Below, one piece after another: positions 11,206 to 61,000 of a DNA stretch of 64,000 nucleotides (position 1 is its first letter; every line of letters starts with the position of its first letter). The stretch is from contig JAAEQR010000072.1 of NCBI GenBank assembly GCA_024231215.1, forward strand, positions 193,210 to 257,209, read 5' to 3'. The notes beneath the pieces were generated by a model, which did not search any database, was not told the DNA's origin, and saw nothing but the letters and a program-made list of their open reading frames with translations. The DNA is from PVC group bacterium (GTDB lineage: Bacteria > Omnitrophota > Gorgyraeia > B26-G9). Position numbers and translations under genes: made by a program.

Positions 11206-11217
11206 CGGAGGTAAAAA

Positions 11218-11428: not shown

Positions 11429-11488
11429 ATATAACTTATTGTAAAATAATAAGTTGTGAAACTGTTTGTATTTTTTGCATATATTTAT

Positions 11489-11516
11489 TTGACATTTTAA
11501 TATAAATCATTACAAT
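11489..11516 (+). promoter_or_regulatory. Sigma70-like promoter (TTGACA, 16-nt spacer, TACAAT)
   Basis: ttgaca at 11489..11494 and tacaat at 11511..11516, upstream of the ORF starting near 11549. Confidence 0.5.
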
Positions 11517-11548
11517 TGATACTAAGGGGACGTAAAAGGGCAAATAAT

Positions 11549-11896: not shown

Positions 11897-12164
11897 TCTT
11901 ACCTTTAATCCACACGCTATTTTTTAAATTGCTTGATTTTTCGCTGTTTTATAGTAGAATTATCTCAATGGTATAAACTTAAATTAGTCTAATACTCCTT
12001 ATGAAACCAGATTGTTTTGTGTTCATAGCATGTTCTTCAAAGTTAAACCTACTCAGTATTTCACGCATTTTCTAAGTGGTTGTTTGCACATTTTGAAAAG
12101 AAGCGTGTTTTTTATTGTAGCAAAATATGTATAGCTTGAAATTTAAGAAAGGGGATATGGTTCA

Positions 12165-14267: not shown

Positions 14268-14288
14268 AAGAACATATTAAATTATAAA

Positions 14289-14336
14289 GGGAGGGCCTTC
14301 TCGCTATGGCGGGATAAATGTGCTCTCCCTTTTTTT
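14289..14336 (+). terminator. Rho-independent terminator after hppA
   Basis: aaagggagggcc...gctctcccttttttta. Confidence 0.65.
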
Positions 14337-14353
14337 ATGTTATAATAAAACTT

Positions 14354-36454: not shown

Positions 36455-36907
36455 ATGATGAAAAGAAACTTCTGGCTCAAATTGATTGCAGTATTAATCA
36501 TCCAGGCGTTATTTTTGACGCAGGTTGATTTTTCTTTGGCTGCAGTTTATCAGAGTAAAGAAGTTTTGCAGGAAGGCGTCTTGAAACTAGTGAGAATAAA
36601 AGATGCCGATACCAGCTTGATTAGCGGTATTAGCTGTGTATACTTTGCAGTATTTTCTATCTTAAGGGGATCTGGAACATCCATAACAGAATTGGTTTAC
36701 GGGGGAGAAGTACGCACAGATACTAAACATATTTATAAAGCGTTTATTCATCAGGAAGACAAGATAATTGCAGATAATACAGGTTTTAGTATTATAGAGA
36801 TTATAAATAATGGCAAACAACTAGAACAGGCAAGTACTCAAAATTCAAGAGCACCTCCGGCTGAAGAAAAAATAGCGTTGATGTTTACACAAACCCGAAC
36901 TACATAA
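36455..36907 (+). CDS. Small secreted protein whose N-terminal leader is homologous to that of the giant protein
   Basis: MMKRNFWLKLIAVLIIQALFLTQVDFSLAAVYQSKEV compared with the giant protein MQGLTGKLWFKIIAFIVLQTFMFVQADISWAANYRQQ. 150 aa, no other domain recognised. Confidence 0.6.
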   Translation: MMKRNFWLKLIAVLIIQALFLTQVDFSLAAVYQSKEVLQEGVLKLVRIKDADTSLISGISCVYFAVFSILRGSGTSITELVYGGEVRTDTKHIYKAFIHQEDKIIADNTGFSIIEIINNGKQLEQASTQNSRAPPAEEKIALMFTQTRTT

Positions 36908-36928
36908 TTTAATAGTTCGGGTTTTTTG
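36891..36928 (+). terminator. Rho-independent terminator enclosing the stop codon of the 36455 ORF
   Basis: aaacccgaacta...tagttcgggtttttt. Confidence 0.7.
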
Positions 36929-36953
36929 TGTCTAAAATATATACAGAAGGGAG

Positions 36954-37343
36954 ATGAGAAAGATGATTGAAAAACGCAGATTTCCCAGAGTAAATCATGA
37001 GTGCCCTGTTCAGTTGAAAACAATGCGTGGAACCGGCTCTAACTTGATGAAAAATTCATTTTCTAAGAATGTAAGCCAGAGCGGAATGGAACTAGTTTCT
37101 TTTGATTTTTATCCGGTTAATGACAGGGTTCAGGTACAAGTTTTTTCAAGCAGTTATGCTAGCATGATGCAGGCAGTAGGCAGAATAGTATGGGTGCAGC
37201 AGTTACCTAACCAAGAAAAATATCGCATAGGTATTGAATTAGTGGAAGTAAGCCGTAGTGCTTACCGAAAACTTACATCTTTGGTTCAGAATACGTTGTT
37301 AAGTCATGGGATTGGATTACAGGGGGATATGAATGTTGCATAA
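36954..37343 (+). CDS. PilZ-domain (c-di-GMP-binding) protein
   Basis: RRFPR (RxxxR) followed about 30 aa later by NVSQSG ((D/N)xSxxG). These are the two c-di-GMP-contacting motifs of PilZ. 129 aa, single domain. Confidence 0.7.
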   Translation: MRKMIEKRRFPRVNHECPVQLKTMRGTGSNLMKNSFSKNVSQSGMELVSFDFYPVNDRVQVQVFSSSYASMMQAVGRIVWVQQLPNQEKYRIGIELVEVSRSAYRKLTSLVQNTLLSHGIGLQGDMNVA

Positions 37344-38664
37344 GCAGAGCGTATTAACATATCTTAGACATAGTCAACAGTCTTTTTCAATATTTTGGGA
37401 CTGTTCTGCTTTGAATCTGAAGTGTTGGAGCCGGATTATAATATTTGCTTTGGTATTTATTTTATTACTTTCGACACTTGTTCGAGGTCAGTTTTCGGAT
37501 AAAGAATACGGTAGTTCTAATGGTAAACGCAAGCCGATATTAAGAGAAGATCAGATTCCGGTAAAAGACGGGGTTTCATATTCAGCATTTGAAGAGACGT
37601 CTGTTTCCAAGAGCCGGGAGTCAGAAGGAGTCAGAACTACAATTAGCGGCTTATTGGATGCGGGATATGACTTAGAGGAAGTTGTTGTGCTTTTAGAAAA
37701 ACAAGGACATAGCGCGGCATCAATTAGTATCGTTTGTCTGGATCCTCAGTTTAAACTAGATGCCAAGCAGATACATAGTGCTTTGCATAAAGCTGGGTTT
37801 TCAAAGCAGGAAGCAGATGGCGCTGTTCCTGTATCATTGCGCCAGGCAAAACAGTTATTTTATCAGCCGGCGAAGAATAATTCTAAATCAGTTATTGCAG
37901 AAAAATCATTAGAGTCTCAGGCAGTTGAATCGCTTCAAGTGAGTGCTCCGGCAGTCAAACCTTTAATAAATAGTGAAACAGAATTAAAAAGTACAATCAA
38001 TACTCTTAAACGCTCAAGGGTTTCTACTCCTCAGATTGTAGAAGTTTTAAAAGAACTTGGCGTATCTTCAGATAGTATAGTTAAAGCTTTTGATGAGATC
38101 CAAAGCGGGAGTTCAACCGATGGGTTTAATGGTCTGGGGGAATGGAAATCATTTCAAAACGCAAGATACGATAATGTAAAAAGTGAAGCAGCGATAATTG
38201 CTTCGGATATAGAACTTGTCAGTTCGCTTCGCGCTTCAGGTTATACGACTAAAGATATTGTACAAAGTATAATGTCTAGACCTAAAAATAAAAACATTTC
38301 AGATAGTTCTAATTTAATAAGAAAAATGGTTAAAATTTTATGTAAATCCGAGATTAATTTAGAAGATACCGTGAATACTTTAAAAGATAATGGGGTTTCC
38401 TCAGAAACGATTATTATTGCGTTTATGGGAAAGCCTGTTTCATTGATAGATAAAATAAAATCAGGAATGTTATTTAGCAATAATACTACTAAAACAGCTA
38501 ATAAAATTATTAAAGGAGTAGTTAACGGAGTAACTTTAAAAACTGTAATTAAAGACCTGCAGCATTCAGGTCATAAAAATAAAGATATTGTTAGTGCCCT
38601 GGATTTTTTGCAGGTTTCCGGAGTGCAGACATCTGAAATATTTAATCAGACAGCGAGGAGGTAA
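37333..38664 (+). CDS. Membrane-anchored repeat protein with at least 8 copies of a ~18-aa 'G(F/Y)S..(D/E)I..A' motif
   Basis: Single N-terminal TM (RIIIFALVFILLLSTLV). Repeats include ISGLLDAGYDLEEVVVLL, IHSALHKAGFSKQEADGAVP, IVEVLKELGVSSDSIVKAF, LVSSLRASGYTTKDIVQSI, TVNTLKDNGVSSETIIIAF and VIKDLQHSGHKNKDIVSAL. Confidence 0.6.
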   Translation: MLHKQSVLTYLRHSQQSFSIFWDCSALNLKCWSRIIIFALVFILLLSTLVRGQFSDKEYGSSNGKRKPILREDQIPVKDGVSYSAFEETSVSKSRESEGVRTTISGLLDAGYDLEEVVVLLEKQGHSAASISIVCLDPQFKLDAKQIHSALHKAGFSKQEADGAVPVSLRQAKQLFYQPAKNNSKSVIAEKSLESQAVESLQVSAPAVKPLINSETELKSTINTLKRSRVSTPQIVEVLKELGVSSDSIVKAFDEIQSGSSTDGFNGLGEWKSFQNARYDNVKSEAAIIASDIELVSSLRASGYTTKDIVQSIMSRPKNKNISDSSNLIRKMVKILCKSEINLEDTVNTLKDNGVSSETIIIAFMGKPVSLIDKIKSGMLFSNNTTKTANKIIKGVVNGVTLKTVIKDLQHSGHKNKDIVSALDFLQVSGVQTSEIFNQTARR

Positions 38665-38669
38665 TAGCG

Positions 38670-39944
38670 ATGAAAAACTTAATAACCAGGATTTTGTGTA
38701 TAACGGTTATATTTTTATTTACGCTTGCGCCGTATTGCTTTGCAGGGTGGGGAAACGTAAGAAAAACAATAGATATGGAGACTAATAAAGATAAAGTTGA
38801 TTCTGCTCAAATAGATAATAAAGAGACTCCATATTCTCATATAAGTACACTAGAGCAAGGTAAAGCAGAGGTTAAGACTTCGAATGAAGAGACAAAAGCT
38901 ACGGTTACAGGGTTAAAAGATGCGGGTTTTTCTGTAGATGCGATTGTGAATAATTTAAAGAACGGGGGCAAAAATGCTTCTGAGATAAGTGTGGCTTGTT
39001 TAGGTTGCAATATCAGTGGCGCGGCAGTACATGCAGCGTTGATTAAATCTGGATTTTCCAAAGAAAGCGCTGATTCAGTAGTGCCGGCAGGATTAATAAA
39101 TCAAGAGTCTGAGGCTTCAATAGCACAGAGCCAAACAGGAAATACTTTAAGCGAAGTGACTGCTCCATTAATTAGTGATTTAGTTTTTGTTCCAATGGAT
39201 AATAATGTTGGAGAAGTATCAGCTAGTGTAGGAGAAGTGGCTTCTGTTGGGTTGAACGATACCAAGCAGGAAGCTTTACAGTTTGCAAAAGATGAACTTG
39301 GAGAAATGCCTCAGAAACCGGAACTTAAAGGGAGAGGTTTCTTTAGCAAAATTATTCGAATATTAGTTTTTCGTATTAAAGTTATCAATAAGATGAAAAA
39401 AGCAGAGAAGACTTCTAAAAAAATGGTAGAAAATGGATATTCTTCTGCGGAAATAGGACATGCTTTTGCTGGAATCGGATACAGTCAGAGACAGACGGCA
39501 ATATTATTAAAAACATCTGGTTTTTCGACAGAAGAAGCATATACAGGTTTGCTGGAAAGCACGGACATTTGGCAGGGGGCAGAGGAGAAAACTATTGCGA
39601 AGTCTATGATTGAAGCAGGATATAATGAAACAGAAGTTGATGCCGCTTTAATCGGTAGTCTGAAAAAACAGGGATATACAGCACAGGAAGTGGTTAATAC
39701 TATTTTTTCAGACATGCCTGAACAGCCAAAAGCAAAAGCGTTAAGTGGTTGGAGAGGTATTATGGTTAGAATCTTAAGAACTGTTTATAATCGTAATATG
39801 GAGGTAAAAGTACAAAAGGCGGAAAAAGCAGCTCAGAATATGATTCGCAGTGGATATAGTAGTGAAGAAGTAAAGGGAGCTTTTAGAAATGCAGGATTTA
39901 ATGATACAAACGCAGTTAAAATATTAAATGCCATTGGCGCGTAA
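38670..39944 (+). CDS. Secreted repeat protein, paralog of 37333..38664 (same G(F/Y)S repeat family)
   Basis: Signal peptide MKNLITRILCITVIFLFTLAPYCFA. Repeats TVTGLKDAGFSVDAIVNNL, VHAALIKSGFSKESADSVVP, MVENGYSSAEIGHAFAGIGYSQRQTAILLKTSGFSTEEAY, MIEAGYNETEVDAALIGSLKKQGYTAQEVVNTIF and MIRSGYSSEEVKGAFRNAGFNDTNAVKILNAIGA. Confidence 0.6.
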   Translation: MKNLITRILCITVIFLFTLAPYCFAGWGNVRKTIDMETNKDKVDSAQIDNKETPYSHISTLEQGKAEVKTSNEETKATVTGLKDAGFSVDAIVNNLKNGGKNASEISVACLGCNISGAAVHAALIKSGFSKESADSVVPAGLINQESEASIAQSQTGNTLSEVTAPLISDLVFVPMDNNVGEVSASVGEVASVGLNDTKQEALQFAKDELGEMPQKPELKGRGFFSKIIRILVFRIKVINKMKKAEKTSKKMVENGYSSAEIGHAFAGIGYSQRQTAILLKTSGFSTEEAYTGLLESTDIWQGAEEKTIAKSMIEAGYNETEVDAALIGSLKKQGYTAQEVVNTIFSDMPEQPKAKALSGWRGIMVRILRTVYNRNMEVKVQKAEKAAQNMIRSGYSSEEVKGAFRNAGFNDTNAVKILNAIGA

Positions 39945-40004: not shown

Positions 40005-43000
40005 ATGCAAGGACTAACTGGTAAGCTGTGGTTTAAAATCATAGCCTTCATCGTTTTACAAACTTTTATGTTTGTGCAGGCAGATATATCCTGGGCGGCA
40101 AATTATCGTCAGCAAAAAGGCCAGGGCGAGAGGGTTGTTGATGAACGCGATAAAGTATCTAAAGACGCGTTAAATACCCAGGTAGTTCTAAATCAGCCTG
40201 CAGTACCGTTTATTAGTTTTGATCCGGGGATTGCTCCGCCTCGTTCGGAAAAACTATCTTTAATCGAGACAACCATAGAAGGTTTGTCGATGGCCGGTAC
40301 GAATTTAAAAACTATATTTGGTACTTTAAAGAATTCCGGTTGTTCGGTATCAGAAACTGGTTTTGCGGCGATGCGGCAGGGATATCCAAAACACGAAATC
40401 TATAAAGCTTTGATCAGCGCCGGGTATGATAAAGAAGAAGTAAAGACAATGCTTGGTAGTATATTACAGCGTGAAGAAGAAAAGAAATCAGAAGATGAAT
40501 CAGCTAACCAGAAGACAGGACCGCCGCTAGACAAAGAGAAAAAGGATGCTGATAAAGAAGCTTCCTTTTTAGACGCAGAACAACCAATCCCCGAATCTTC
40601 CGAAGTGACCGCCCTTTCTGTGGGCAAAGATCCCGTTAAAATAATCGAAAAAGCAACAGCTGATAATGCGGTAATGAACCAGACAGTTGCGTTTGTACGT
40701 TTAATGATCAATGAAGGTAAACGTGGTAAAGAGCTTATAAAGACTTTAAAGAAAGCCGGACTTACTAATGAAAGAATTGTCATGGCTTTGGCTCAGTTAG
40801 GTTTTAGCTTGGATGATATTGTCGCTATATTTAAAGAAGCGGATATCAGCGCTACAGAAATTATTCAGGCCATACACAATGGCTTTTTGGCGTTTAGCGA
40901 TAAAGATATTTATAATGCCCTGCTTAAAAACGGATTTAGTGATAAAGATATTATTGCCGCATTTAAAACAGCCGGAGTATCTTCAGAAGATGTTTTAAAG
41001 ATAGCTACACAATTAAGCCGGAATATGGTGAGTGTGGCCAAGGCAATGGTGGAGGTAGGTTTTAGTTATGCTGATATTGCCAAAGCATATCTTTTAAAGG
41101 CAATGAAATGGACTTTTGATAAGAGTGTGCATGTTGTGAACTGTGCGGTCAAGGCATTTGACGCATTTCTTACTAATATCGGCCGTAAATTTACAAGCAA
41201 AGAAGAACTTGCCTATGAACTCATTGTAGATGATATCCTGCGTACCGGAGAAGTAGAGATTACCGGTAAAGATGTAATGACTTCTATGCTGGCAATAAAG
41301 AATGTTGCCCAGAAATATGGAATAGATATGCAGGGGTATAATTTGACCCTGGAAAGCCTGATGGAATTAAATGACGCAGCGATTGTGCATTTAGACGGTG
41401 ATCACTGGGTAAGTTTGCAAAATATAGATGGTGATCAGGTTTCAATTATTGATAACGGAGAAGAGAAGACAATTTCTCTTACTGAACTAAAAATTCGTTG
41501 GGATGGCAATACATTAGCGATCAATCAGGAGAGAACACAATACCAAGAGCTTTTAGATTTACAGATGCGTCAGATACGTGGTGGTAGAGGTTGGAATCCT
41601 TTTAAAGCGATAAAGAAAATATTTAAAGCAGTTAAAAATTTTATTGTAAAGACTGTTAAAGCTATAGTTAATATAACTAAAGCTGTATTTTATACAATTA
41701 CGGGAAATACACAAAAAGCAGATTATTATTATAACAGGGGTTTTCAACAGTTAAGCCAAGCGCTTAACTCGCTTATCAATGCAGTAGTTCCTGGTAAGTT
41801 CCTACAGAAAATTTTTAAATCTATTGCCAATGGATTGGTTATGTTTGCCCGAGGAATGGTTAATCAGATAAGAGGCTTGTGTATGATGGCTCGGGGTGAT
41901 TTTAAACAGGGATTTAAAACATATCTTATGGGAGTTGTGCAGACTGCGGTTGCTCCGCTAGTTAGTCTCTATGGGATGTTAGGAGAAAAAGTAGGTAGGG
42001 TCGTAGCCAAGGTTATTCAGTGGGTAGTACGTATTGTTGCAGCTGTATTAAGTTTTGTTTGTACTAAAATTTTTGGCTGGACAGGAATAGGAATGGCTAT
42101 AGGAATGGCTATTGCTTTTGTAGCTACCGTAATTACCTGTATGGTGGATTATGATTTTGTTCAGATGGTTCAACGTGGTGATGCGAATGAAATTGCGAGT
42201 GTTATGGGCAAAATATTTAAGGCGGCAGCTATATCCGCAGTAATTGCTGCTGTTGCTTTTTGTATAGGAGGAGCTATCCAGGGATTAGGAGGCACCGCAT
42301 CAACAACAGGCTCAACAATAGCAACAACAGTAGGTAGTATTGTGAGTACTGTAGCCAAGGCAGCAATTACTGTAGCTAAGACTGCAATGACTGTAGCCAA
42401 GTTTGTATTAGCTCCTGTAATAACGGTAGTCAATGTTTTAGCTAGAGCTGCAATGACTGTAGTTACTGCTATAACTAAAATTGTAATGACTGTAGTTAAG
42501 GTTATAGTTGATGGTATGAATCATGTAGTGAGAATGGTGACAAACTTTTTAAAACCTATGATTGAGAATCTTAAGAATTCTATAGTGAATATGGTGAAAG
42601 CTATAAAACCAGATGCAGTTATTCAGGAGATAGGAAGCGAGGTAATTGAAGAAGCTATAACAAAGGTAGTAAAGGAACAAATTGCAATGTATGTTGCTAC
42701 TAAAGGATTGGACTCTGCTGGGATTGATGATCCTTATGTGAGGGCTGGTATTGTAGGTGCTATTGGTGCATGGGCTGGGGGAGACGGCTTTAAAATTGAT
42801 GCAAAAGATGTGGTTGAAGGAGTTTTTATCGGGACAACTCAGGAGACAATAAGGCAGCAGGGATATAAACGTAATTGGGATCCTTTACTTATAGAAAGTC
42901 TCGCTACTGTAGGAGGGACAGTAGTTGGTGCGTCTATAGGTGCTATTCAAACTTCTAGGACAGTTTATACTGGTACCTGGGCGAGTAGAACAATGGATAA

Positions 43001-46000
43001 TTTAAAAGCTTCTTTTGGCCAGATGGTTGGTAATATAGCGACAAACGCTGTACAACGTATTTGCCTGGAAAATGGTATGGATCCTATTGCCACCAGCGCA
43101 ATATCTTCACTTGCAGGTGGTCTTGTCACTGGGCTGGGAAATTATGCTGTTGGAAACAGTCCAGGTGGTTTTCGTAGAAATATGGGGTTTGCATTGGTCC
43201 AAGGAATTAATGATGGGTTTACGTCAGCTGGTTCTATGTTGTATAAAAAGATTTTAGTCGAAGACTTAGCCTTTACTGATAGTCAGGCGTCTTCGATGGT
43301 AAATGGTACTTTTGGTCAATTGAAATATCAAATGGAGCTGCACAATGAATTCGGTTATGGAAAATGGGAAGGGACCGATGACCTGACTTTTAGTCAAAAG
43401 CTTCAACTCGCGGGAACAAAACTTGGTGAGGGTGGAGTGTTTAGTGATTCTTTAAAGGTATTAAATAGAAATGATGGTCTTAAAAATGATCTTATTTCTG
43501 CTATGGGTTTGAACTCAGGTTCGTATTCCGGAACTGCGTATGATAAAGCGAGCTATATAGATGGTTTTAATAGCAAAATAGACTCCATGGATTACATGAT
43601 GAATGGCTTGGATTCCAATATAGAGCTTAAAGCAGATGGTAAATATTATAATTCTGATGGTAGTATTAATACTTATATGTCCCGCAATAAAGCGAAAAAC
43701 GAATATTGGAATCATTGGAAAGAAGCAAAACCAGAAATATTTGGACAATCAGCAGGTGATAGCAATGGAGGGCAATCAACAAATTTAAGTTTTGGCGATG
43801 CTTATTTTGAGACTATTTCTACTCGGCAGCTAAGTTGGCAGAATACCAATGCGAGAAGTTCCCTTAGTTTTATTACTGCTCCTATACGTAATAGCTTAAA
43901 CGTTTCCATATATAATGCTACACGCACTGCATATGAACCTCGCGCTATTATGCAGGGCGCTGAAATTATAAAGATCGCGGACAATTCAGCACAACAGAAA
44001 TATTTAGCAAATTCTATTAGCCCACAGTTTAATTCAATAATAGATGTCAATAATGTAACTTCTGTAGCTTTTAATAGCTGGAATCATTTTCAAACTAATA
44101 CTGCTGCCTATTTTACGACAATTTCCAGCAGTGTTAATAATAAGGGAAGGGAAGTATATGTTTTTAATACAGGCAGAAGAGTTGGTTCTAATTTGGTTTG
44201 CGCGGAAACTCCAAATAAGCAGGCTATGGAAAGTTTTTTCAAAACGGAAGAAATCAATAATTTAACGATCAGTCCTTTTACTAGTAAAACACTGGGTAAT
44301 TTTGAGGCTCAAAACAAGGAAGAATTCATTATTACCGGAGCTATTCAGCAGTTGACGAAAACCGGGATAATTGTAGATTATCAGCTGGTAAGTATGACCG
44401 AGGGTGCAGATATTCTTCTTGCAACAACAATTAATAATGTTGACTTGTTTACTACTGTTGCCAGCGGGGTGCAATTCAGTTCTCAGTCATTAGTATTGAA
44501 GGATAAGAATAACAGTACTTATAAGACTGCGATTGATAAAGTATCCGTAGATTTAGGCATTAATGAAAGTGTTGATAAAATTGCTAATCAGGTAAAGTTA
44601 ACTTCTGCAGTTGAATTATGTATTAATGCTAATGGAAACTTGAGTATAACGGGAGAATCTCTGGACGAACTTAATACAGAGTTAGGAGCCTTGGAAAATC
44701 TGGCAAAGAAATCTAAGGCTATTGATTTGCCGGGCGGTTGTGTTCTTGCAAATACGTCTCTTGAGTATATTGAAACTTCAGAAGGATTAGAGCTTATCGC
44801 AAAAGAGACATTACAGAAAGATCGTAATATTGAATATGAGGGACTAGGTTATACAATTGATACAAGTAAAGGTACGGTTCAGTATGTTTATAATAATAAG
44901 GGAAAAATTACGAGTTTATTGAATTTCGATAAGGGGTATAAAGGAGTAACGCTTAAAGGTTCAGATGGCAAATCAATAATGATTTTTAACGGAAATAATG
45001 TGACTTTAAGTAATGATAAAAAGTCATTTTTTAACTCAATGTTAGTGAAATTGAATTATCGCAAAGGAAATGAATTGAGTATTCGTAGTGCGGAAGTATT
45101 AGCTATAGATGATTATAATCTCGGGAAAGTAAATAGCTTTGAAGTTATGCGACAAGGAAAATCTTTAGCATCATCATCAATAACTGATTCTGCTAAAGAT
45201 TTGTCTACCGAGGGGAAATTAAATTATATTCGTTTAGGTTCTGATTCGGATAGTAATACGATTATTAAAGCAGGAAGTGTTTTTACTATTATTGAAAATG
45301 AGGTCAAATTCAAGAACAATGATGTTTTAATTAATGAAGGAACCAATTCGATTAGTATTACTGGACAAGACAGGTCTTTAATGACTTTGAATGGAAAAGA
45401 ATCAGCAATAATATTGAAGGGTAGTGCGCGTAAATTTGATCTGACTAAAGAAAGTGTCCAAGAGCAGATGAGACAGAAACAAGGCATTCCTACGGATGAT
45501 ACATTAGTAGAGAAGGATACCTTTGTCTTGGGAGACGGCAGCACTGTTGTAATCTATGCAGACCAGGATTCTAATTCTAAGGTATTACAGGTGTTTTCTG
45601 GAAACTTGGGGACAAATGATAAAGGACATAGAACTATCGATGTTTCATTTGTTAATGAAAATGGAATACTGGAAACAATGTCTATGAACAACGATATGCT
45701 AAGGCAGAAGGTCAATTCCAATAGATTTATTAATGGAGTACAAGGGGTATATCAAATTACTTCTGGAGATCAATTAGCATTGGTATTTGAGTTTGGGACA
45801 GGTTCTAATATGCAGCGGAAAGTTTTAGATTTTAGTCTCGGGGAAGATACCAATGGCAGTAGTGTATATACATTGAATGACTGTAGTTTAAATACAGATA
45901 CAAACACTATTAATATGGGCGGGGTGTCTTTTGATAAAACAGAGACATCTTTGCAAACAGCTGTCTTTTATCGTTCGGAAGATACTTCAGCTGTTCAGGG

Positions 46001-49000: not shown

Positions 49001-52000
49001 AAATATAAGTTTTGACGCGGCTGATCAAATATTTAAAGTTTTACAAAGCGATACTGATATTAATAATTTAGAAGTTGATTTGTCTAATCTTACGACTTCG
49101 CGTATTGCAATGGGGGTTTTTGGCAATTATCAGAAAGTAGTGAGTAGTTGGAATGCAATTTATGGTTCTGAATTCCAGAAACAAATATATGGGGAAGTAA
49201 TAGATAATATAGATTTTGTTTCTAAGTTTGTGGGTGAATATAGTTCCTGGGGCAATGCTAGAAAGGAATTCTTTAAAACTACAGAAGAAGGGAAACAAAT
49301 AGCGGAAGAATTTAAAGAGTTATTTACCAAAGCAATTTCCCAGGTAAACATCAGCGATTGTCCAGAGATCAAAAAGCTTATTGGTTCCCCGGATAAAGAT
49401 TCTAAGGATAAAGAATTTAAAGCAGACTTAGGTTTATTTGGGAAATATCTTAAAGAAGCAATTTCTTCCTATAATACTGCTCAGAGTAATGAGTCTAATC
49501 CTTTGGTTTTTTCTCAGAATATGGCTTTAGCGGAAAAGAATAATAAAATTGCAGGATATGCTTCATTGGGAGCAAATACCGGATTTAGAGATCTTGTATA
49601 TTCATCGCAACATAAAGTGGTTAGTAAGCAGTTGAAGCTTTCTATTGCGCAGTTTAAAGAAATAAACATTATTCCGGAAAAAGAAAATTTATCGGAAGAA
49701 GCTAAAGCTAATTATGCAAAATTTGAGGCGTTTCTAGCTAGTTTTGAATCGGAAGAAGCTAAAGCTGATTATGCAAAACTTGAGGCGTTTCTAACTAGTT
49801 TTGAAAATGCAGGGACATATGATGCTACACGTAAACCTGATGATTCTAACCCTATAGTCAATGATCCTCAAGTAGAGCAGTTAGCGATAAAATTAAATAG
49901 TGATATGGAAGCTCTCGTTGTTACTTTAGAAAATAAACCTGTGAACGGTGAAGAAAAAGATGTAAGTCTTACTGATGTAGCTAAAATATCAGCCAGGATT
50001 CAGGGTACGACAGAAGCCAAACACAGCATTGCAGTGATAAATCAGAGGGAGGCAATAATTTACTTAGCGGAAATGTCTGAAGTTGCCAGTAAGATTGACA
50101 AAGCTTTTGATCAGGAAGTGGAATACTGGCAAAATCAAGTAGATACTGCTGAGGAGTATGATTATTATGATGAAGGTTATTCCGCTAAACAGAAACTCGC
50201 TGAGACAATCCGCAACCAGCATGATTTAAAAATCGAAGTTCTTGTGAAAGCTTATGAAAAACTGCAAAATCCGGATGTTCGTTTAGCCTCTGGTGAACAT
50301 GATATCTCACTTATGACTATAGATTTTTCCAGATCGAAAACTTTTGGTGACAGTCGGGAAGTTTATCTTGCGATCAATAGAGAAGTTTATCGAGAAGCAG
50401 GATTTTTACACTCTGCTAAAGGTCAAACAAAAGAGTTTATTAATGCATTGAATATAGATAAATCTGCTGTATCTTTAACCAATACCCAGATAAAAGCGAT
50501 TACAACAGAATCAGCAAAGACTAAGCCTTATATTTCTTTGTGTGAGTTAGCGACAAAACTAGATACATTTGAAGTTGGGATTGTGGGAGTTATTGGTGAA
50601 TCGCAGGGGTTTTTACAGCAGAACAAAGCAATTTTGGCTAAATATTATGATTATGCTACATCAAAGTTTTTTCCCTGGCAGGAAGAAGGGCAAAAAGAGG
50701 AGTTTAAACAACTCTATGAGGATCAGATTAAAGAACATGGGGCAATAGTTGATTTAAATCCGTTCACAGCTTTGTTGAATGAAATTAAGGTTAATAAGAA
50801 AGTAACAGAGAAAGTAGACGAAAGATATGATGATTTACAAGCATATGAGCATAATATCACAATGCAGAATAACCTGGAAAGTGTTTTTTCTGATTTTAAT
50901 AAAAAATTTGAAGGGCTGAAGACTGATTTTCTTAATGCAAGAGATTCTTTTGTCAGTGAGCCGGCATTTGATATTAATGGTATCAGTGATATTTCTAAAA
51001 AATTAGAAAAGACATCACTTGGTTTTCAGATCGATTCTTTTCAGGTAAAAATTGATAAAGTTCTTTTTTCTATGGGTATGATCACAAGTAAGCTTAATGA
51101 CCAAATAGAAAAGTCATTAAGTAAAAAAACAGTAAGCAAGATGCTCTTTACTACGCCGTCACGCAAAATGTCATTGCAAAGAGAGCATAATCAAAGAATG
51201 GGCAGCTTAAGACGTAATATTCTGAAACTTGATATTCGAACTGAAGTAAGTCAACAGTTCCAGGATCTTGAAGTTAAACTCAAAGATTTGTCTGTACAAT
51301 TAAATAATGCTATAGACAGTGATGATATTAAAGAGGTAACAAGACAATTATCTATAGCTGATGCTAAGGTTCTTTCTGCGTCAATAACCATGGTTTCTGA
51401 ACATATTACCCAGCCGATTGCCGGAAAGTTTCCGCTTCGTATGGATAGTTATAAATTCATGGATACTATGATAGAAGATGATAAGGGTTTGAAGAGGAAG
51501 GGGCTGGGGCAGACGTTAACCGAGGGGTTTCAAAATATTTCGATTAATTTAGTTAATTTACAAAAGGTACTTGATGTTTCCATTGAAATGATGGAACAAA
51601 ATAATACTTCATTTGATTCAGCTAGTTTTGGGAAAGCTTTGTTAAATGTTTCTACCCCATTAATAGATAAGAATATAAGGTTTGCCAATGCTCTTTATGA
51701 AAGCCTTGGCGTAATAGATCAGGTATTTGCTACACAAAAAAATGCGGAAAATTGGTGGACTCAGGTAACAAGTGTTGGACAAAGTAAGGGAATATTTGAA
51801 AGGAATGTTGGTGGTACAGTAAAAAAAGCCTTAGTTGATATTATACAAAAGGCTAGTAATCTAAAATCTTTCATGGATACAGCTATTGACGAGGCAGTAG
51901 AGATTTATGAGAATGAACTTATTGCCACGGTTGATTATAAGCCTTTAATTAAATCACTTCCTCAGTTTGGCCAGCGAGCAGTTTCTAAGATAGAAACGGC

Positions 52001-55000
52001 ATTTAAAGGTTATACCAGGGGAATGGTGTTGAATTTGGTTATTGTTACGGCAGTTGAAGTTATTGGAGCCGTGGCGTTTACATTGCTTACTGGTGGATTT
52101 GGAGCCGGAGTATCAGGGGGAATCTTAGCTGGAAAATGGGGGATCCGGATAAATCGGGCTGCAAAAATGGCTTTGCTTTTCGGAGGTATGATGGCAGCTA
52201 CTCGTGTTTCAGTTCACAATGTGAGGAAATTTTTAAAAGAAGGTTCTGCGGCATTTTCTGATTATTCTATGCTTGAAGATTTCCTTGCTCCGGCAGCGCA
52301 GGGATATCAGAGTGGGAAATGGGTAGGCTATTTCATGGGCGGTGTTGGAGGTATGACGGTAAAAAGTTTAAAGGGAATGCTCTATCTTGGTAAGAAAGAA
52401 TTAGCTAATAAAACTGCTTTGAAGATTTTTGGTCGGACAATAATAAAAGAAGGCATACTTAAACATAGTCAGCAAGTTTTTATTGGATATTTTACAGCGG
52501 GAACAATTGCTCATGCTACCTATGATGTAATTAAACAAGGGTGGAGAGACGGTAAGACCTGGGGAGCAATTAATTGGAAGGATGTGGCTATTGATGCGGT
52601 AACTTTTGGCGGTGAATCTGCATTTTTAGGGACATTAGGCAGAACTATGAGTACTGGATCTGGGATAATGCATAGTAAGATGATGAATAAACCTGCAATA
52701 GAGAAAATTACTAGATCAGATATTATTGGAAAGACTTATACTGAAGGCAAAGTTTTGAAAAATTTCTTTTATACAACTTTCCCAGGGGCCAAGACTTTTG
52801 GAGCTAATTTGTTAGCAGGTGATTCCATAAAGTCCCGGGCGGCACGATATTTATTAGCTGAGCGCATGTTTAGTACTGCTAATGTATTACTTGATTTTAA
52901 TATCTTTGGGAAAATGGTTGTTTCTCCGTCAATGGATATTTGGCGTGGAAGCGGTGGAGAAAAGGTTGAAGATAAGTTTGCTTATAAGATGTTGGCTGGA
53001 TTTGGAGAAGGCGAAGCCGGAGATAGCTGGATGCAGGGCATGCAATTTGGCGGCAGTTTAGCATTTTTTAGTAAGGGAAGTGAATTCATTGAAGCTGGCT
53101 GGTCTAATATGACTAAGAAGGTTTCAATGGGTAAAACACTTAGTCGTCTTAAAATGAGGTCTTACGATAAGTTGCCGGGAACATTTAGACAGCTTACTTC
53201 TGGAACTATAAAAGAAGCGTTTATTGAAGGTCCGATTGCGCATATGCTTGTAAATAGCGGTATAGTTCATCCATATCTCGCGGAAATGTTGGTGGAATTT
53301 ATTCCCGGGGATGGTGGAGCTGATGCAGCTCTTTTTGCGAAGCATGCTGGGGTTTCTACGATGGAAGCAGTTGATATGCATGCTGTTTTGGAAATGGGTA
53401 AAAATACAAGAATAAATCAGATAGTAACGAATAAAGATAGATTACAGGAACTTGCGACAGAATCGAATATTGACGCAGAAAAATTAGGTAAGATGAGTGC
53501 TTTTGATTGGATGACTTCAATGAATACATCTACAGAAAATTCTTCTACTACGTATACAATGTCTGGAGCTTTTGAAACTATTTCCAAAGGGAGCATTACT
53601 ACAGTATCTGACGTGGTGAATTTACACGGAGATAATTCGCATGGATTTATGAAGGATTGCGGGTTTAAAATGGTTTCAATGGCTCATGGTGGCATAGTTG
53701 TAAAAGATATGATTAAGAGTGGTAGTACAAAAGACGGTAATCTGATAGAAGATACAATTATGAGTTTTACTACTGATGATGTTGCGTATATAACTGGAAA
53801 AAGTATTATGGAACTTGGATTGGATAAAGATACTTATTCCGGTAAAACATTAACTCAAGCTGTTGAGCAATTGAACAGTACTGGAGAAGGCAGAATTAGC
53901 CAAAATGAGTTTCTTGAGCTGATAGGGATGAATAATGTTACATTAAGCAGCATTGCAAAATTGCCGGGTTTTCAGGGAATGAAGAAGTCTGAAGTAGCCA
54001 AGGAACTTGGCTTTGAAAAATATAATCCGCATATTCTTTTTTCTAACGATTCATTCCTAGATTTTATGGTAAAAACGGAAATTCTTCCGGTTTATAAATC
54101 AATGGAGAATATGAGTGATTCATATAGGCATATGGCATTGCAGGAACTGGGATTGCTTACTGTCGAGGGAACAACAATTTTCGAACAGCTTGATCAGATG
54201 AAACAGATTCAACAGAAATTGGAAGCAGCGGGTACAACTATTGATAACGCTAGTTTAGAACAAGTTGCTCGCGCGGCAGATAAAAATAATGATCTTGTTA
54301 AGATGTTTGAGGGCAATACAGAATACCAGTATAACAGAGTTAATGCGGCTAGGATTGAAATTGCTAAAGATGCGCAGGGGGAAATAATTACGGATAATGC
54401 TACTAAGCAAGCTAAGATAAGGATGCAAGTTGGTAAAGAATCCCAGGTGCTTAGTTTGACTGATTTTAATAAACAGATTATGGAATTCAGCCGTATTCCG
54501 TATGCAACAATAGACATCGGTGATGGCAAGTCACGGCGTAAGATAGATATTTCTAAGATGAATCCGGAAGTTTTGATTAAGAATCAAAATGGGAACCACC
54601 AGCTGGTAATAACCCTGATGGATACTTCGGTATCAGATCTTGCGAATTTAGGAGTGCAAGGCAGTTCTGAAATCAGAGTTGATAGTAATAATAACGCGGA
54701 AGTCTTTCTAACTACAACTAATGGACGTTATTATAAAACCGGAAAAGTTCTTTTGCAGGATCATCTGGTGCAAGCAGGTATAGTTGATAATGCGCAGGCT
54801 GCGGATCAATTACTGCAAGATCTATTTAATGAAGGAAATGGATTTGTTGATAGAAACGGGGTTATCAATATTAACAAACTTGAAGCAGTAGAAAAAGCTT
54901 ATAATGCAACCATAGAAAAGACAGATAGTGTTGAGATTAAAGAGCAACAACAGCAGTTAGTTAACTTTTTACAGCAGAGTATGGGAAAAACAACCACATT

Positions 55001-58000
55001 TATTTTAGGTAATGATGGGAACTATACTGTAGGACAAAAAGCTGAAATACTAAGTGTGTTATTACAGACTGCGGATCAGGGAATAATGCAGGTAAGGTTT
55101 GATCTGGAGGCATCTGGGCTTGAAAACTTAACAGCCAATGATATTAAAGAGGCTCAAAACGTAGAAGCAAAGATAAATAATGAGATCCAAGGCATGTTTG
55201 GTTACCGCAGAGTAGTGCTTGAGAAAGGAACTCTTAACAAGATTGTGGGTACTGATAGGGCCTTACTAGAAAATCTAGTCAAGTCCGGATATGTTTCTGT
55301 AAGAGAAATAAAAAATGTAAAAACTTATGCGATTACACGTAAATTTGTTGATTTAAAGAATTCAGATGGTATGGAAATATCAGGAGTATCTGCAGAGCAG
55401 AAGAATCTAGTATTTAATACATTACGTAATGAATTTGATAGTCATAGTCAGGATAAATCTTCATATACTCCGCTTATTCAGGAAGGGGTAAATCAGGTAG
55501 ATGCTGTATTAAATCTGATTATTAATCCGAATACATTATTCAGGATCCCGACTGGAACCGGAAAAACATATTATATCTTTACAGCAGCAGCTTCGATTAA
55601 TAAAGCATTAGGTCGAAAGACTGTATACGTGGTGCATGATTTGAATCAGTTTTCTATACAGGCAGATGATGAATCCCGTGCAAATTGGTTTGAATATAAC
55701 GGAATGAAATGGGCAACGATATCCAACGGCCAGAATAATCTTGTCGGTGATCATCACTTTGAACTCAATGCTTTGGAAGCAAATAAAAATGGAGAAGCAC
55801 AGCGATTGCAGGAAAACAGTGATGTGATAATCATGTCTGCGGATGTACTTTCCTTCTTTGAAAATGCTTTGGGTAAAGAAAAAGGTTCTGAAACTACGCA
55901 TATGCAGAAAACATGGGATACGATTTTTGGGAATAATACCATGTTGTTATTTGATGAAGCAGATACGATTTTCTTTAAACAGAGAGCCCAGTCAGGAGAA
56001 GGCGCTAAATCGCTTACTATAGAGAATAAGTTAATTCAAAGAGGTGTGCATTATGAATTTATAGGTAATACATTAGGTTTATGGGGGAAAATCAACAAAA
56101 GTGATTTTAGTGAAACTGAATTGAATCAGATGCATGATGAAGGATATATTAATAAGGATACGGGAAATATTCAGTATGGTTTTGTGCATTTGGTGAGAAC
56201 TAGTGATAAATCAGCAGATAGCAGAAAAACTTTATCTGGGGCTTTGGAAACAAAATTAAGTGATATTGTTAACAAACAAGATTCTCAGGGGCAAACCTTG
56301 TTGACTAAACCTGGAGAACAAATGGACCATCTAAGGTCAATGCTAACGGCTACCTATACTGTGTATAATTGGGAGGGGACAAAAATTGTTCCCCAGAAAA
56401 AAGCCTCTTATATAGAGTACAAACAGGACAAACAGAAGGCTGAAAAAGAAGGAAATCAGGTTGTTGTTACTGGATTTATGTTTAATCAAGAGCTTGTCGA
56501 TCAGTATAAAGGCTGGGTGGAAAAACAATTACCCGGAGATGTAAAGATTGATGATATAGAAAATCCAACTAATATTTCCGAAGAGAATAAGCATAAAGTG
56601 CGTGAATACCGTCGTTCTTTAAAGGCTGTGGCTAAGGTAATATTGCAAGTAGATGGTATTGATGTTGGATATGATCCTGATTCTGGATTAATTCGTCCAG
56701 CTCCGGGTGGTGTTGTTACTCCGGAACTTCAGCTTCAGGATCCTTATTTTGCGGGGCATACACAGTTATTATTTGCCGAAATGAGAGATGTCGAGCAGTC
56801 AGCTATAACTAAGCGTTATGAAAAGGAACTTAAAGCTCAACAGCAAAAAGATGTTAAAGCAGATGCGGAAGACCTGAAATATGCGGATAATTTATATAAA
56901 GTGACAGTATCTGACTGGTCTCGTGTAACTACTATAGATAAGAGTATACGCCGGGCGATGGCTTCCGGCGCTAATATTTGCGGGTTTACCGGTACTTATG
57001 ATGCGGTAACAGACATGGCTTTTCAGCTTTATGGCTTACGTCATAAGTATATGGGGAATAAGTTCCAGTATATCACTTCTATCAGCTGTGATGATCTGGT
57101 GAAAAACGGCGTAGAGGAATCCGCTGCTGATGCTGTATTTAACGACCTTTTTCAGCAGGGATATATTAATAAAGACGGTGTTGTTAGAATAGAGAAATTC
57201 TATGAACTAAATAATGCTTCTGAGTTACAGTTATCTACTCAGGATACGTTTTTACAGAACGCTGTGTTTAATACTTTGAACAATGCTCAGGAAGGCAGAA
57301 TAAATCATGTTTATGAAGCTGATAACTCAGCAAATGCTTTAGAGCATGTATTTAATGATATTGCGGCTAAGGTAATTAAGAACGGTTATATTATGAATGG
57401 TATGCAAACGTTCAATGAAGGTGAAATCAGTAAGAATGTTGTTAATAATTTTGAATCGCTGTTTGCAAATAATCTGAAGAATTTTGTAATTAATAAAGAG
57501 ACTGGAGCAGCGGAGCTAACTGTTGTGGTTAAAGATCAGAAAACAGAATGGGATGTGTATAGAATCCACTATGACCATCAGATAGGAAAAATAGATGTCG
57601 AACATGTGAAGACTCAGGATAAACAAGGTCTCGAAACAACAAAACATAAAACTGGTAAGATTCAGAAATATATGGAAAATCATCAGAATGTATTTTTCTA
57701 TCTTAACCCTTCGGCGAGTAGAGCTACTGATATTGAATCGGTGCATAGTTGGTTAAGCGAGCAGCAAGCAAAATCTATGGAAGCAGATGATTTAAAATCA
57801 GCGGTCAGGAGTAATCTAAAAAACTATGCTCTCTGTGATCGGGAATCCACCAGATGGATGTTTGAACAGTTGGCTGGCCGTGACCGCGGGGCACGAAATA
57901 ATAGCGGCCAACGCGATAACTTTGTTACGATAAACGGACAGAAAATATATCATGACCTTGATGTTTATGTGGTTGACCCGGCGGCACAGTCAGGTGTTAA

Positions 58001-61000
58001 TGATTTTGCCGAAAGCCATGAAGCAGCAATCAGCAAATTTAGATCAATGCTGGGCAATGCCGATATTATTGCGAAACAGAAGTCATTGTACAAGAACATG
58101 TCTGACTTGATGTATTCTAAGGTAGCGGAATATGTGGAAGATTTAAAGGATACGATTTATCGGGAGGTTAAGGAAAAACAGAATAAGGCTGCTAGCAAGA
58201 GACAGGAAAAAAAGATTGGCTGGCTGGCAAATACAGAACAGCAAGTAGCGATATTAGAATCTTATTTAGGTGAATACCAAAATACTATTGGCGTCGACGA
58301 TAAATTTGGCGTTCCTGAAACAGCAGCTACTCCTCAGGAGGCTTTACAGAATGTTGTAGATAGCTTTAGAATGTTTTTAAAGGAGAAAGTTGTTGTTGAT
58401 GAGAAATTTGGTTTCTTATCGAAAAATATACAGGCTTCTTTGATCAGTGAGTCGAAAGCGACTAATTCGATTCAGTTGAAACGAGAGATTAAAAATCACA
58501 CCGGTGGGATCTCTTTTGGTATGACTTTATCAGATACAGTAGATCTTATTTCCGAAAATATTACTGAGCATGATCTTCCGATAAGAATTACTGAAGCTGG
58601 ATCTGATCAAAATATGGTTTTTGTCGGAAAACAATGGAGTGATTTAGAGACTGGTGAGTTGTCTAATATGACTTCTAAACAAAGAGGTATGGTAAAGAAA
58701 AAACTGATAAATTCCGGGCATATGAGTGTTGATGGAATAGTGAGCAGTAGCGGAGTGGGAACTGCTACGCATTCAGCTAATATTTTTAAACGTTTAGGCC
58801 AAGGTATGGTGCTTAAGATTATCAGTAATCTATTCAAAGGCGCAACTGGCGGAGGGGATGATGAAAAGGCTTTTGCATTGGTTGATATCCTAACCAGTAA
58901 TAATATATTATCTTTAGGCCGTAATAATTTTGAAGGAGTATTTAATCAGCTACAGTCTGCGGCAGAATTAATAGAGAAAGGGGTTGTTTTAAAAGATGTA
59001 ATTTCTGAGCAGGATATTATACGTAGTTTAACTTCAACTAAGCCGCACGCATTTTTTGAATTATTAGCTCAAAATATGACAAGCACAGCAATAGGAAAAG
59101 ACTGTTCGGGTATAGCTAATAAATATATCAAAGGAGATCGCAATTTTTCTAATATTGAAGTATCGGCGCAAAGATTATTAGATAGAATTTCTTTGTATAA
59201 AGATGGGCAGATAGATGCAATTACATTTATGCCAATGCATATAGGGAAACGATTTCTCTTTGAACAGACAAAAGATGATAAGTCAATTGACCTTGAAAAA
59301 TCATTGTCTAACTTTGTTGTTTCTACAATAGGTTCTGTAGCACTTATTGTTGCTTTGACGGCAGGTAATTTACTGCGCTCTACTTTTGGGGAAATAACGG
59401 GTGGGTTGCTAGGCATGGCTGTTTTTCCATTGTATATAATTGTTTCTGCCGGAATAACTGCTGCTTCTATCCCTGTTCAGAAAATTTTCAGGGATCAAGC
59501 TGGTAAGTCTGCCCTAACAAAGTTAAAAAATGCAGAAAAAGGAATGGCAGCGACTTTTGATAGTTATGTTGCTGCTGTAAGAAAACTTGGATGTAGCTCT
59601 GAAATCAAAAATAGCATGTTAAGTCTGGTAAAACCGGGGCTTAAACTGGATACAATAAGCAGGGCAGAAAGAATCAGAGACAATCTTCTTAATGTTAAAG
59701 GGCTTTCCCCGAAAGCTAAAGGGATTATTGATAAACTTACATTTAAAGAATTGGTGGATTTTAATAGTATATCGCAAGATAAACAAAAGGTGATTGTCAA
59801 TGCTTTGGCTGAAAATAAGGATAAGGTAGAAGAATTAAATAAGGCTATAACAGATGTCTCTTCACAAAAATTTTCACAGGATCGTTTGGGACTTGTGGAT
59901 GTAGTTATGGATAATTTATCTGATATTAAGATTAAGGTTGATGATAAAACACAGCGGGTAGCTTCCACAAAAGAGAAACTGGATCTGGTCAATTGGCTAG
60001 GCGGAACCAATTATAGTGACGTTGATTACTTTGGTTATGTATTACAAAAAGGCGAGATTGATACAAAACAAGCAGAAACAAAGGTGCGAGAGGCAGTAGA
60101 TCAGCTCATGGAAGTGGTGAGTAAGGAAACTTCTACTGAAAAGGAAGAAATAGATAAAGTCCAAGCAAGATTCTATTTGGCGGACGCTTATTCCAATAAA
60201 GATTTGATTGAAGTAATGAGTGTTGTTAATCAGGAAGAAAGTTTTGCTAAAGCCGGAGAACAGTTAAAGTCAGCAGTTACAGAATCCAGGCAGATTATAG
60301 ATGAGAAAACATCAAAAAGGCTAACTGCTAAAGCATATTTAAAATTAATTAGTCTATATGCTAAAGAAGATGCGTTAAAAGGGAATAAGCAAGAAGAAAG
60401 TGTTCAGATCAGACAAATCAAGGATATCTGTGCAGAGATGGAGCAGTTAGCAGATAAAGGTGGACTTAATCGTGATTCTGTTATTGATGCACATATGGTT
60501 TTAGCTCAGGTATATGCTGACCGGGGCTGGACAAGTGAGGCAGAAGCAGAGTATAACAAAATAATTAATAGTGATGCAAACGTAGAGACAAAGATAAAAG
60601 CACTTGGCCGACAGGTGATCATTCTTGCTAGACAGAATAAGTTTGATGTAAATGGCGAAAATCATGTAGAAAAAACAGTTAATAAACTTGAAGAACTAGT
60701 AGCTAGCTCAAAAACAGACACAAAGGGTGATCAGTTTATGCAGATGTTTTCTGCGGCAAAGAAGGCGGCAGTTGATATTATAAAAGCTTTTGCTAAAGGA
60801 GAAAATGATTTTTCTAAATTCCAGGATGAGTATGGATTTATTAAAGTTTCTCTGGCTGAGATCATTGGTGCGGAAACAGTATTTAATGAGATCAAATCAA
60901 GTGTTGATAAATACAAAAATGGAAACGATGCAAATAGTGTTCCGGATGTGATCAAAGCAGTATTAGCAGATAAATTTATAGAAAAAATTAACCCGGAACA

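Follow-up and report, generated by a model that had tools for sequence, protein, structure and literature searches.

A putative membrane-anchor module and a lineage-specific heptad-repeat insert in a 7,815-residue C39 protein from an Omnitrophota genome

Introduction

Two preprints have described giant proteins in the bacterial phylum Omnitrophota. In the first, these proteins are reported to possess an N-terminal C39 peptidase domain near the signal peptide, numerous transmembrane (TM) regions with ambiguous predictions, and a divergent version of the SecA_DEAD domain beside the TM anchors; West-Roberts et al. suspected that they undergo autoproteolysis, the cleavage points being unknown (10.1101/2023.11.21.568195). 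In the second, Nielsen and Lui found TM helices or a signal peptide in 94% of 916 long proteins, and the group with the PF03412 (C39) domain constitutes one of the two largest architecture clusters (10.64898/2026.06.07.730766). The placement in the membrane and the cleavage of giant Omnitrophota proteins are a recognized open problem.

Here we analyze a stretch of 64,000 nucleotides (nt) from a PVC group bacterium of the Omnitrophota (contig JAAEQR010000072.1), hereafter the window, and the giant intact open reading frame (ORF) that it carries. The encoded protein of 7,815 amino acids (aa) has an exact database match in MCP4649168.1 ("hypothetical protein GY853_03685 [PVC group bacterium]"), encoded on a contig of 708 kb, and belongs to an already described kind, the long Omnitrophota membrane proteins that combine a signal peptide, a C39 domain, and TM regions. 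We focus on window positions 41620 to 42650, which encode residues 539 to 882 and for which a first-pass annotation had described a cluster of TM helices with an amphipathic "TVAK" repeat. We propose, with a probability of roughly 60%, that this region serves as the first module by which a long surface or membrane protein is anchored in the cytoplasmic membrane and that the insert bearing the TVAK repeat is not part of the conserved machinery. This relative of about 7.8 kaa, whose conserved anchor module is sharply bounded and which has a candidate C39 cleavage site at GG526-527, offers a tractable case of the wider problem.

A conserved hydrophobic core in the first block

The protein was scanned for hydrophobicity on the Kyte-Doolittle (KD), Hessa biological, and Wimley-White octanol scales. 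The three agree on the signal sequence and on three further blocks, namely, residues ~637 to 762 with a weaker tail at 797 to 838 (block 1), residues 4005 to 4029 (block 2), and residues 6434 to 6491 (block 3) (Table 1). This recovers the long hydrophobic helices that the first-pass annotation had placed at residues ~540 to 880; every peptide that it quoted lies where it was said to lie, and GWTGIGMAIGMAIAFVATVITCMV and AAAISAVIAAVAFCIGGAIQGLGG correspond to residues 691 to 714 and 740 to 763, respectively.

A scan of the species-representative genome set with the single sequence returned no relatives; an alignment-based scan of species-representative genomes returned nine related loci, all from Omnitrophota metagenome-assembled genomes (MAGs). 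An exhaustive HMMER search with residues 528 to 1210 against 1.84 billion representatives gave eight proteins, including the query, and word-indexed protein searches gave four (partial), one, and one relatives. The taxonomic spread of the relatives is confined to Omnitrophota MAGs. Searches of Pfam, NCBIfam, and PDB sequences found no family for residues 528 to 1210, 3951 to 4500, or 6368 to 6667.

In seven of the nine relatives, the segments equivalent to block 1 are likewise hydrophobic. The helix that we term H0 has counterparts with Wimley-White values of -3.5 to -5.7 kcal/mol in seven of the nine, the exceptions being the loci L007 and L008. It is followed by a hairpin of two helices, TMa and TMb, the second of which (residues 692 to 714) is hydrophobic on all three scales, with a Hessa value of -0.38 kcal/mol; the 26 residues from 689 to 714 include no charged or strongly polar residue. 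Seven positions in TMb are invariant (G696, A698, G700, A704, F705, V706, and T708), and among these G696, G700, A704, and T708, at i, i+4, i+8, and i+12, form a small-xxx-small face, the pattern typical of helices packed tightly against one another in membranes. TMb also contains a perfect 12-nt tandem duplication at 42087 to 42112 (ATAGGAATGGCT, 2.2 copies by Tandem Repeats Finder [TRF]), which encodes IGMA-IGMA. The window protein and its closest relative thereby gain one helical turn with no shift of the G-xxx-G register; in the alignment, most relatives fall 3 residues short here. Beyond the invariant DYD, the third hydrophobic helix (TMc), and the linker that follows it, the relatives resume with a conserved helix of the pattern ...KQ.L..Y...AG..NPYxRA..GA.GAWAG and then WDPL..E, and residues 900 to 1210 are rich in small residues and not strongly hydrophobic.

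A version of the region that avoids the membrane altogether can be envisaged, in which the hydrophobic helices would be packed inside an all-helical bundle, soluble or periplasmic, with the Ala/Val/Thr/Lys repeat as a low-complexity helix exposed to solvent. It would accommodate the small-residue-rich residues 900 to 1210 with their lack of strong hydrophobicity; helices with small residues in GxxxG spacing also occur in soluble proteins (PMC12470825), and West-Roberts et al. call the TM predictions in such proteins at times unreliable (10.1101/2023.11.21.568195). We nevertheless consider such a bundle very improbable. The uncharged stretch from 689 to 714 has a negative insertion energy on two scales, the hydrophobicity is kept in the relatives despite sequence change, and a membrane pass is required between the exported N terminus and the ATPase domain described below.

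The TVAK repeat and a lineage-specific insert

The TVAK segment (TVAKAAITVAK...VKVIV, residues 782 to 835) opens with three 7-residue units, TVAKAAI, TVAKTAM, and TVAKFVL. The repeated units that had been noticed at about positions 42350 to 42500 are plainly present at the DNA level: TRF reports a 21-nt period at 42347 to 42401 (2.6 copies, 85% matches, score 82), the repeat family comprises six copies spaced by 21, 21, 45, 21, and 12 nt, and the unit ACTGTAGCYAAG is found in three exact copies and one copy with a single mismatch between 42348 and 42500, versus 0.40 expected over the whole window. None of 100 shuffles reached five matches to ACTGTAGCYAAG. In the protein, the lag-7 identity of residues 762 to 803 (0.46) is the highest anywhere in the chain (next best, 0.23), and that of residues 777 to 840 lies above composition shuffles, of which 26 in 2,000 reach the observed value. 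The amphipathic character attributed to the repeat stood up to a hydrophobic-moment analysis, with moments (muH) of 0.33 to 0.65 and the Lys and Arg residues on a single stripe. Across the insert these basic residues occupy positions 785, 792, 799, 814, 825, 832, 843, 850, 857, and 865, a spacing of mostly 7 or 11, and the stripe is broken at P804, G837, P851, and P869.

The repeat does not, on the other hand, belong to the TM cluster with which it had been grouped. With 3 Lys in 19 residues, the heptads have a Wimley-White octanol value of +7.5 kcal/mol, and no 21-residue Hessa window starting at residues 782 to 800 falls below 4 kcal/mol; we accordingly reject residues 782 to 802 as a TM pass. 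Further, the ~90-residue insert of which the repeat is a part (residues ~782 to 875) is present only in the window protein. It is missing in all nine relatives, so that the repeat cannot be a core part of the topology, and the relatives instead carry a variable Gly/Ser/Thr/Ala-rich linker of 30 to 50 residues after TMc. At the same linker position, the locus L001 has GGT-rich DNA tandem repeats with periods of 12, 21, and 24 nt, and L008 has tandem repeats of other units, which indicates that this linker repeatedly acquires in-frame tandem expansions. Hence, the TVAK repeat is most simply viewed as a recent, lineage-specific, in-frame expansion of a 21-nt unit in a variable linker, presumably by replication slippage, and, judged from the alignments, it is outside the conserved working machinery.

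Two other origins or structures for the repeat were considered and set aside. A canonical coiled coil is at odds with the heptads as read from the sequence, in which 5 to 6 of the 7 positions are Ala, Val, Ile, Met, or Thr and only one is charged. Derivation of the insert as a duplicate of the amphipathic helix that follows the double-glycine motif (LKNSIVNMVKAI versus VKNFIVKTVKAI; 35 nt, 77%) is marginal, with 89 of 2,000 protein shuffles and 31 of 1,000 codon shuffles reaching the score.

One could still imagine that the insert spans the membrane on its own, either as an extra TM hairpin of residues ~797 to 818 and 817 to 838 or with the three heptads (21 residues) as a pore-lining amphipathic TM helix in an oligomer, the Lys and Thr residues facing the lumen. 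Three heptads would be as long as a single bilayer crossing, the polar residues recur with each heptad on one face of the helix, and the candidate hairpin helices have Wimley-White values of -3.0 (800 to 818) and -0.8 (817 to 835) kcal/mol with KD means of 1.95 to 1.99. Each candidate, however, carries 1 to 3 Lys or Arg residues in mid-helix, the Hessa minimum is +3.66 kcal/mol (residues 815 to 835) in addition to the unfavorable values of the heptads given above, AlphaFold2 confidence is 25 to 30 there, and no conserved function can depend on an insert that all relatives lack. We therefore think a membrane-spanning insert unlikely, and favor the anchor without it. The insert helices are most likely to rest on the membrane interface or to pack beside the anchor as a helical arm. 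The insert should contribute either no passes or two, because its flanks are conserved in relatives without it and everything downstream would otherwise be inverted. Of little importance in itself, the TVAK repeat illustrates that in-frame tandem repeats are tolerated in the linker after the anchor, and it calls for caution in drawing functional or topological conclusions from low-complexity hydrophobic repeats.

A C39 domain and an invariant double-glycine motif

Upstream of block 1, the protein has a domain of the C39 peptidase family (PF03412), matched over residues 426 to 509 with 39 bits against a gathering score of 22. C380, H467, and D483 are invariant in nine sequences, in the contexts N379-C380-A381, H467-W-V, and D483-N-G. 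These are candidate catalytic residues, their roles being assigned by position in the motifs N-C-A, D-H-W, and I-D-N-G and not by residue-level alignment to a solved enzyme. An AlphaFold2 model of residues 355 to 575 has predicted local distance difference test (pLDDT) values of 63 to 78 in the beta core and of about 30 in the double-glycine segment. In Foldseek searches with this low-confidence model, the top nine matches comprise PCAT1 (4ry2), LahT150 (6mpz, with leader peptide), ComA, and C39-like domains, with E values of about 1e-3. The model thus supports the predicted C39 fold and is silent on the docking of the double-glycine site.

Directly C-terminal to this domain, the segment D518-L-Q-M-R-Q-I-R-G-G-R528 shows no variation among the five sequences first aligned, and across all relatives it follows the pattern LQMR[QED]IRGGR, with L008 having K in place of Q520. 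Conservation collapses and indels begin in the alignments right after R528. Apolar residues are located at -4 (I), -7 (M), and -12 (L) relative to GG526-527, which is the only GG site of the protein outside hydrophobic helices with this arrangement; apolar residues at -4, -7, and -12 ahead of GG are the pattern of double-glycine leaders. GG526-527 is thereby a concrete candidate for a C39 cleavage site, and we consider this suggestion from the motif the most interesting by-product of the analysis.

The complete homolog at L008 (positions 9794 to 14458), 1,554 residues long with its own stop codon, contains the signal peptide, repeats, C39 domain, GG motif, and anchor, followed by about 900 residues; the same MAG also carries a longer paralog, L004, which runs off the contig end. 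Since the L008 protein ends after the block 1 module, the N-terminal part is a separable unit.

These features raise the possibility that LQMRxIRGG-R is a built-in processing site, at which the exported C39 domain would cut its own chain after G527, either in cis or with one copy cutting another. Such cleavage would free the wall-binding-like repeat module and unmask the cationic amphipathic helix and the glycine-zipper hairpin as a device for membrane insertion or permeabilization. The new cationic N terminus and the zipper helices might then insert into or permeabilize the membrane of a prey or host cell, and the Lys-striped TVAK helices might add affinity for anionic lipids. The idea draws on the invariant GG527 with its apolar -4/-7/-12 positions exactly where conservation stops, on the invariant C380, H467, and D483, and on the net charge of +18 over residues 528 to 665 with muH values up to 0.65, unlike an ordinary periplasmic flank. 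The existence of the N-terminal module and block 1 as a stand-alone protein in L008 would also fit. A periplasmic, catalytically active C39 peptidase has a precedent in FapD (PMC5557850), and NCBIfam searches show a weak similarity of the protein to FapD and FilB. Translocation of a type VI secretion system effector into target cells requires a glycine zipper (PMC10240207), and West-Roberts et al. suspect C39-mediated cleavage while stating that no cleavage points are known (10.1101/2023.11.21.568195). Against this, the AlphaFold2 confidence of about 30 in the GG segment gives no support to docking in the active site, and no transporter of the peptidase-containing ATP-binding cassette (ABC) type (PCAT) or immunity-like gene lies beside the giant gene, the ABC genes in the window being of the MacB/FtsX and Mla types. 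The two further hydrophobic blocks also tether the protein, and an anchor in its own membrane is simpler. We accordingly view a processed attack module as doubtful and an own-membrane anchor as the better account of block 1. If processing did take place, it would represent bacteriocin-style double-glycine maturation scaled up to a cargo of 7,288 aa and provide the first concrete cleavage point in Omnitrophota giant proteins, which is missing from the literature.

Blocks 2 and 3 and a proposed topology of the protein

Hydrophobic blocks are indeed present at about 52020 and 59300, where the first-pass annotation had seen TM clusters similar to the first, and yet they are unrelated to it in sequence and differ in their predicted numbers of passes. 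BLASTP among the three blocks gave a best E value of 0.079, on which we reject them as repeats of one module; they are alike in composition only. In block 2, only one segment combines the length and the apolarity needed to cross the bilayer, here as well as in the partial relative P0011, which keeps block 2 and the start of the ATPase domain. Together with the ~400 residues after it (52017 to 53500, residues 4005 to 4500), block 2 is conserved with P0011, the shared motifs being G.RINRAA.MAL..GG.M...RV..HN, LAERMFSTANVLL, and TIKEAFIEGPIA; this region gave no family or structure match. Block 3 forms a tight hairpin. The passes that we predict are an even number for block 1, one for block 2, and two in the hairpin of block 3.

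This count follows from the ends of the chain. An odd number of passes is needed between the N-terminal module and the ATPase domain, because the signal peptide puts the former outside and the ATP-dependent DEAD/ResIII domain is inside; with one pass in block 2 and a hairpin in block 3, block 1 should hold an even number, 2 or 4. The signal peptide is kept in the relatives, and its cleavage, after ADISWA and before the next A, is inferred from the AXA rule. The amino acid composition of the large segments does not discriminate the side of the membrane. That the three blocks split the protein into alternating compartments, as had been suggested, is supported insofar as the blocks very probably place different parts of the protein on opposite sides of a membrane. 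The trans-envelope topology drawn from this does not hold: alpha-helical hydrophobic segments insert in the cytoplasmic membrane, outer-membrane spans being beta-barrels, and such helices would therefore weave through the cytoplasmic membrane only.

We propose the following arrangement. The signal peptide would export the N-terminal repeats and the C39 module, after which the core helices of block 1 would insert as 2 or 4 passes. The middle part of ~3,100 residues (residues ~763 to 4004) would then be located outside the cytoplasmic membrane, and the single TM helix of block 2 would bring the chain back in, leaving the ATPase domain and the C-terminal third in the cytoplasm. Residues 4030 to 6433 and 6492 to 7815 would thus both lie inside, with the hairpin of block 3 retethering them to the membrane.

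Several points weigh against this arrangement. The placement of residues 528 to 665, with their charge of +18, outside the membrane runs counter to the positive-inside rule. TMa carries K669 and R676, TMc is marginal on the Hessa scale (+2.1 kcal/mol), and residues 800 to 818 and 817 to 835, at the Wimley-White values given above, are hydrophobic enough for an extra hairpin. The AlphaFold2 model of residues 528 to 1000 (11 sequences) is all-helical but unreliable, with a mean pLDDT of 48 that drops to 25 to 30 over the insert, and Foldseek searches of the PDB with this model found only generic helical proteins (best E value, 0.055; TM-score, ~0.15). The values of the hydrophobicity scales were, moreover, entered by hand.

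Table 1. Features of the giant gene and its product, with window coordinates
Feature	Position	Strand	Evidence
Single giant intact ORF, 7,815 aa	40005..63452	+	ORF listing, translation, exact database match
Predicted Sec-type signal peptide, aa 1-31: K7/K11, hydrophobic core IIAFIVLQTFMFV, then ADISWA and A	40005..40097	+	Wimley-White -10.8 kcal/mol; alignment
Copies of a small three-helix unit (UBA-like, perhaps CW_7-like), aa ~95-360	40287..41084	+	Pfam UBA_DHX29 27.3 bits; profile match to PDB 5i8l
Peptidase C39 domain, aa ~370-510	41112..41534	+	Pfam PF03412 8.5e-10; invariant columns; Foldseek
Invariant DLQMRQIRGG-R motif, aa 518-528; candidate double-glycine cleavage site	41556..41588	+	Alignments
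Cationic amphipathic helix AH1, aa 531-566: 8 Lys, 0 acidic	41595..41702	+	muH 0.54-0.65 at 100 degrees
Conserved uncharged helix H0, aa 637-660, possible first pass	41913..41984	+	Wimley-White -4.0 kcal/mol
Hairpin of two conserved hydrophobic helices: TMa, aa 666-689; TMb, aa 692-714	42000..42146	+	Hessa -0.38, Wimley-White -4.9 kcal/mol; invariant columns; TRF
Loop opening with invariant D715-Y716-D717	42147..42212	+	Invariant columns
Conserved hydrophobic helix TMc, aa 737-762	42213..42290	+	KD 2.34; Hessa 2.1; Wimley-White -1.2; aligned in relatives
Gly/Ser/Thr-rich variable linker, aa 763-781	42291..42347	+	Alignment
TVAK heptad repeat proper, three 21-nt units, aa 782-802	42348..42410	+	TRF, pattern count, lag-7 analysis
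Rest of insert, aa 803-875: hydrophobic helices, single Lys/Arg stripe	42411..42629	+	Lys/Arg spacing; muH 0.5-0.65; alignment
Conserved small-residue-rich helical region past insert, aa 876-1210; motifs NPYxRA, GAWAG, WDPL..E	42630..43634	+	Alignment; HMMER matches
Block 2: one TM helix, aa 4005-4029, conserved internal Glu	52017..52091	+	Three scales; P0011
P-loop ATPase/helicase core, Walker A PTGTGKT, FDEAD, aa 5175-5319	55527..55961	+	Pfam ResIII 1.4e-5, DEAD 2.7e-3
Block 3: tight two-helix hairpin, aa 6434-6456 and 6464-6491, ~7-residue turn	59304..59477	+	Three scales

Other domains and the genomic setting

The three-helix units at residues ~95 to 360 are called only as UBA-like folds by Pfam. 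A family profile matches them to the three repeats of PDB 5i8l ("Lysozyme," NGQEAYDSLANAGYDPQAVQDKVNEIL; E value, 4.3e-5), which we take to be the CW_7 cell-wall-binding repeats of the phage lysozyme Cpl-7. If this likeness is real, the exported N-terminal module binds peptidoglycan. The helicase region gave no SecA_DEAD match in Pfam and no match among PDB sequences. Apart from the linker and TMb repeats, the giant gene has just one further tandem repeat of appreciable size, a 57-nt duplication at 49691 to 49805 (residues ~3229 to 3267; two copies, 94% identical), which encodes SEEAKANYAKFEAFLASFE and SEEAKADYAKLEAFLTSFE.

The giant gene adjoins an upstream gene cluster at 36455 to 39944. This includes an ORF of 150 aa with a signal peptide resembling that of the giant protein, an ORF with a PilZ domain at 36954 to 37343 (Pfam, 1.6e-9), and two ORFs of ~430 aa (37333 to 38664 and 38670 to 39944) built from ~35-residue three-helix repeats like those at residues ~95 to 360 of the giant protein. 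A signal-peptide-like hydrophobic N terminus is clear in the second of these and less so in the first; altogether, a putative signal peptide is present on three upstream paralog-like ORFs. On the other side, an ORF with a signal peptide starts at 63518, 66 nt past the stop codon of the giant gene, and continues beyond the end of the window (64000). Over the region of block 1, the opposite strand has only TTG-start ORFs of 53 to 87 aa, and we reject antisense coding there.

The remaining neighbors in the window include McsA/McsB/ClpC, MlaE/F/D, RadA, IspD/IspF, CysE/CysS, enolase, and an H+-pyrophosphatase and are those of an ordinary bacterial chromosome. All ORFs of at least 150 aa in the window are on the + strand except two, one of which overlaps the clpC-like gene, and GC skew is positive in every 2-kb window (0.09 to 0.33) of this ~37% GC chromosome. 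The strand bias and the skew are consistent with a leading-strand segment of a low-GC chromosome.

Comparison with known systems

Interfacial amphipathic lipid-binding helices and designed channel peptides of the (LSSLLSL)3 type use heptad or 11-residue spacing to put a few polar residues on one face. The TVAK insert resembles them in having its few polar residues on one face of an apolar helix; unlike in these helices, its polar face is a single Lys/Thr stripe and the rest is Ala, Val, Ile, and Thr.

The N-terminal part shares with the C39/double-glycine systems (PCAT1, ComA, LahT150, and the periplasmic FapD) the C39 fold and the conserved Cys, His, and Asp. It also has, as those systems do, a GG with apolar residues at -4, -7, and -12 followed by a cationic, hydrophobic, GxxxG-containing sequence, as found after GG in class II bacteriocin precursors. 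Unlike in the C39 transporters, however, the peptidase is located in the very chain that carries the GG, on its N-terminal side, and not in an ABC transporter. In contrast to C39 substrates, the "leader" ahead of the candidate site would be a 500-aa exported module and the "cargo" would have 7,288 aa. A class II bacteriocin precursor proper, with a leader of ~15 to 30 aa, a small peptide, and an adjacent PCAT, is excluded by the GG at residues 526 and 527 and the 7,288 aa that follow, and the likeness is an analogy only.

The Omnitrophota giant proteins offer the closest parallel. In neither of the two preprints did a term search turn up glycine, amphipathic, or heptad features, so that the invariant GG motif, the zipper hairpin, and the insert with the TVAK repeat appear not to have been described there. 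The window protein differs from the giants in that its ATPase is ResIII/DEAD in Pfam rather than SecA_DEAD and in that dockerin, TSP3, and carbohydrate-active enzyme domains were not found in it. In common with them, it comes from Omnitrophota, has a signal peptide and then a C39 domain, carries predicted TM regions spread along the protein with what may be a divergent DEAD-type ATPase beside the TM anchors, and lacks recognizable domains over most of its length. At 7,815 aa, it is below the cut-offs of the catalogs, which are operational thresholds (at least 10,000 or more than 30,000 aa), and we therefore file it as a smaller relative with the same architecture rather than as a cataloged giant.

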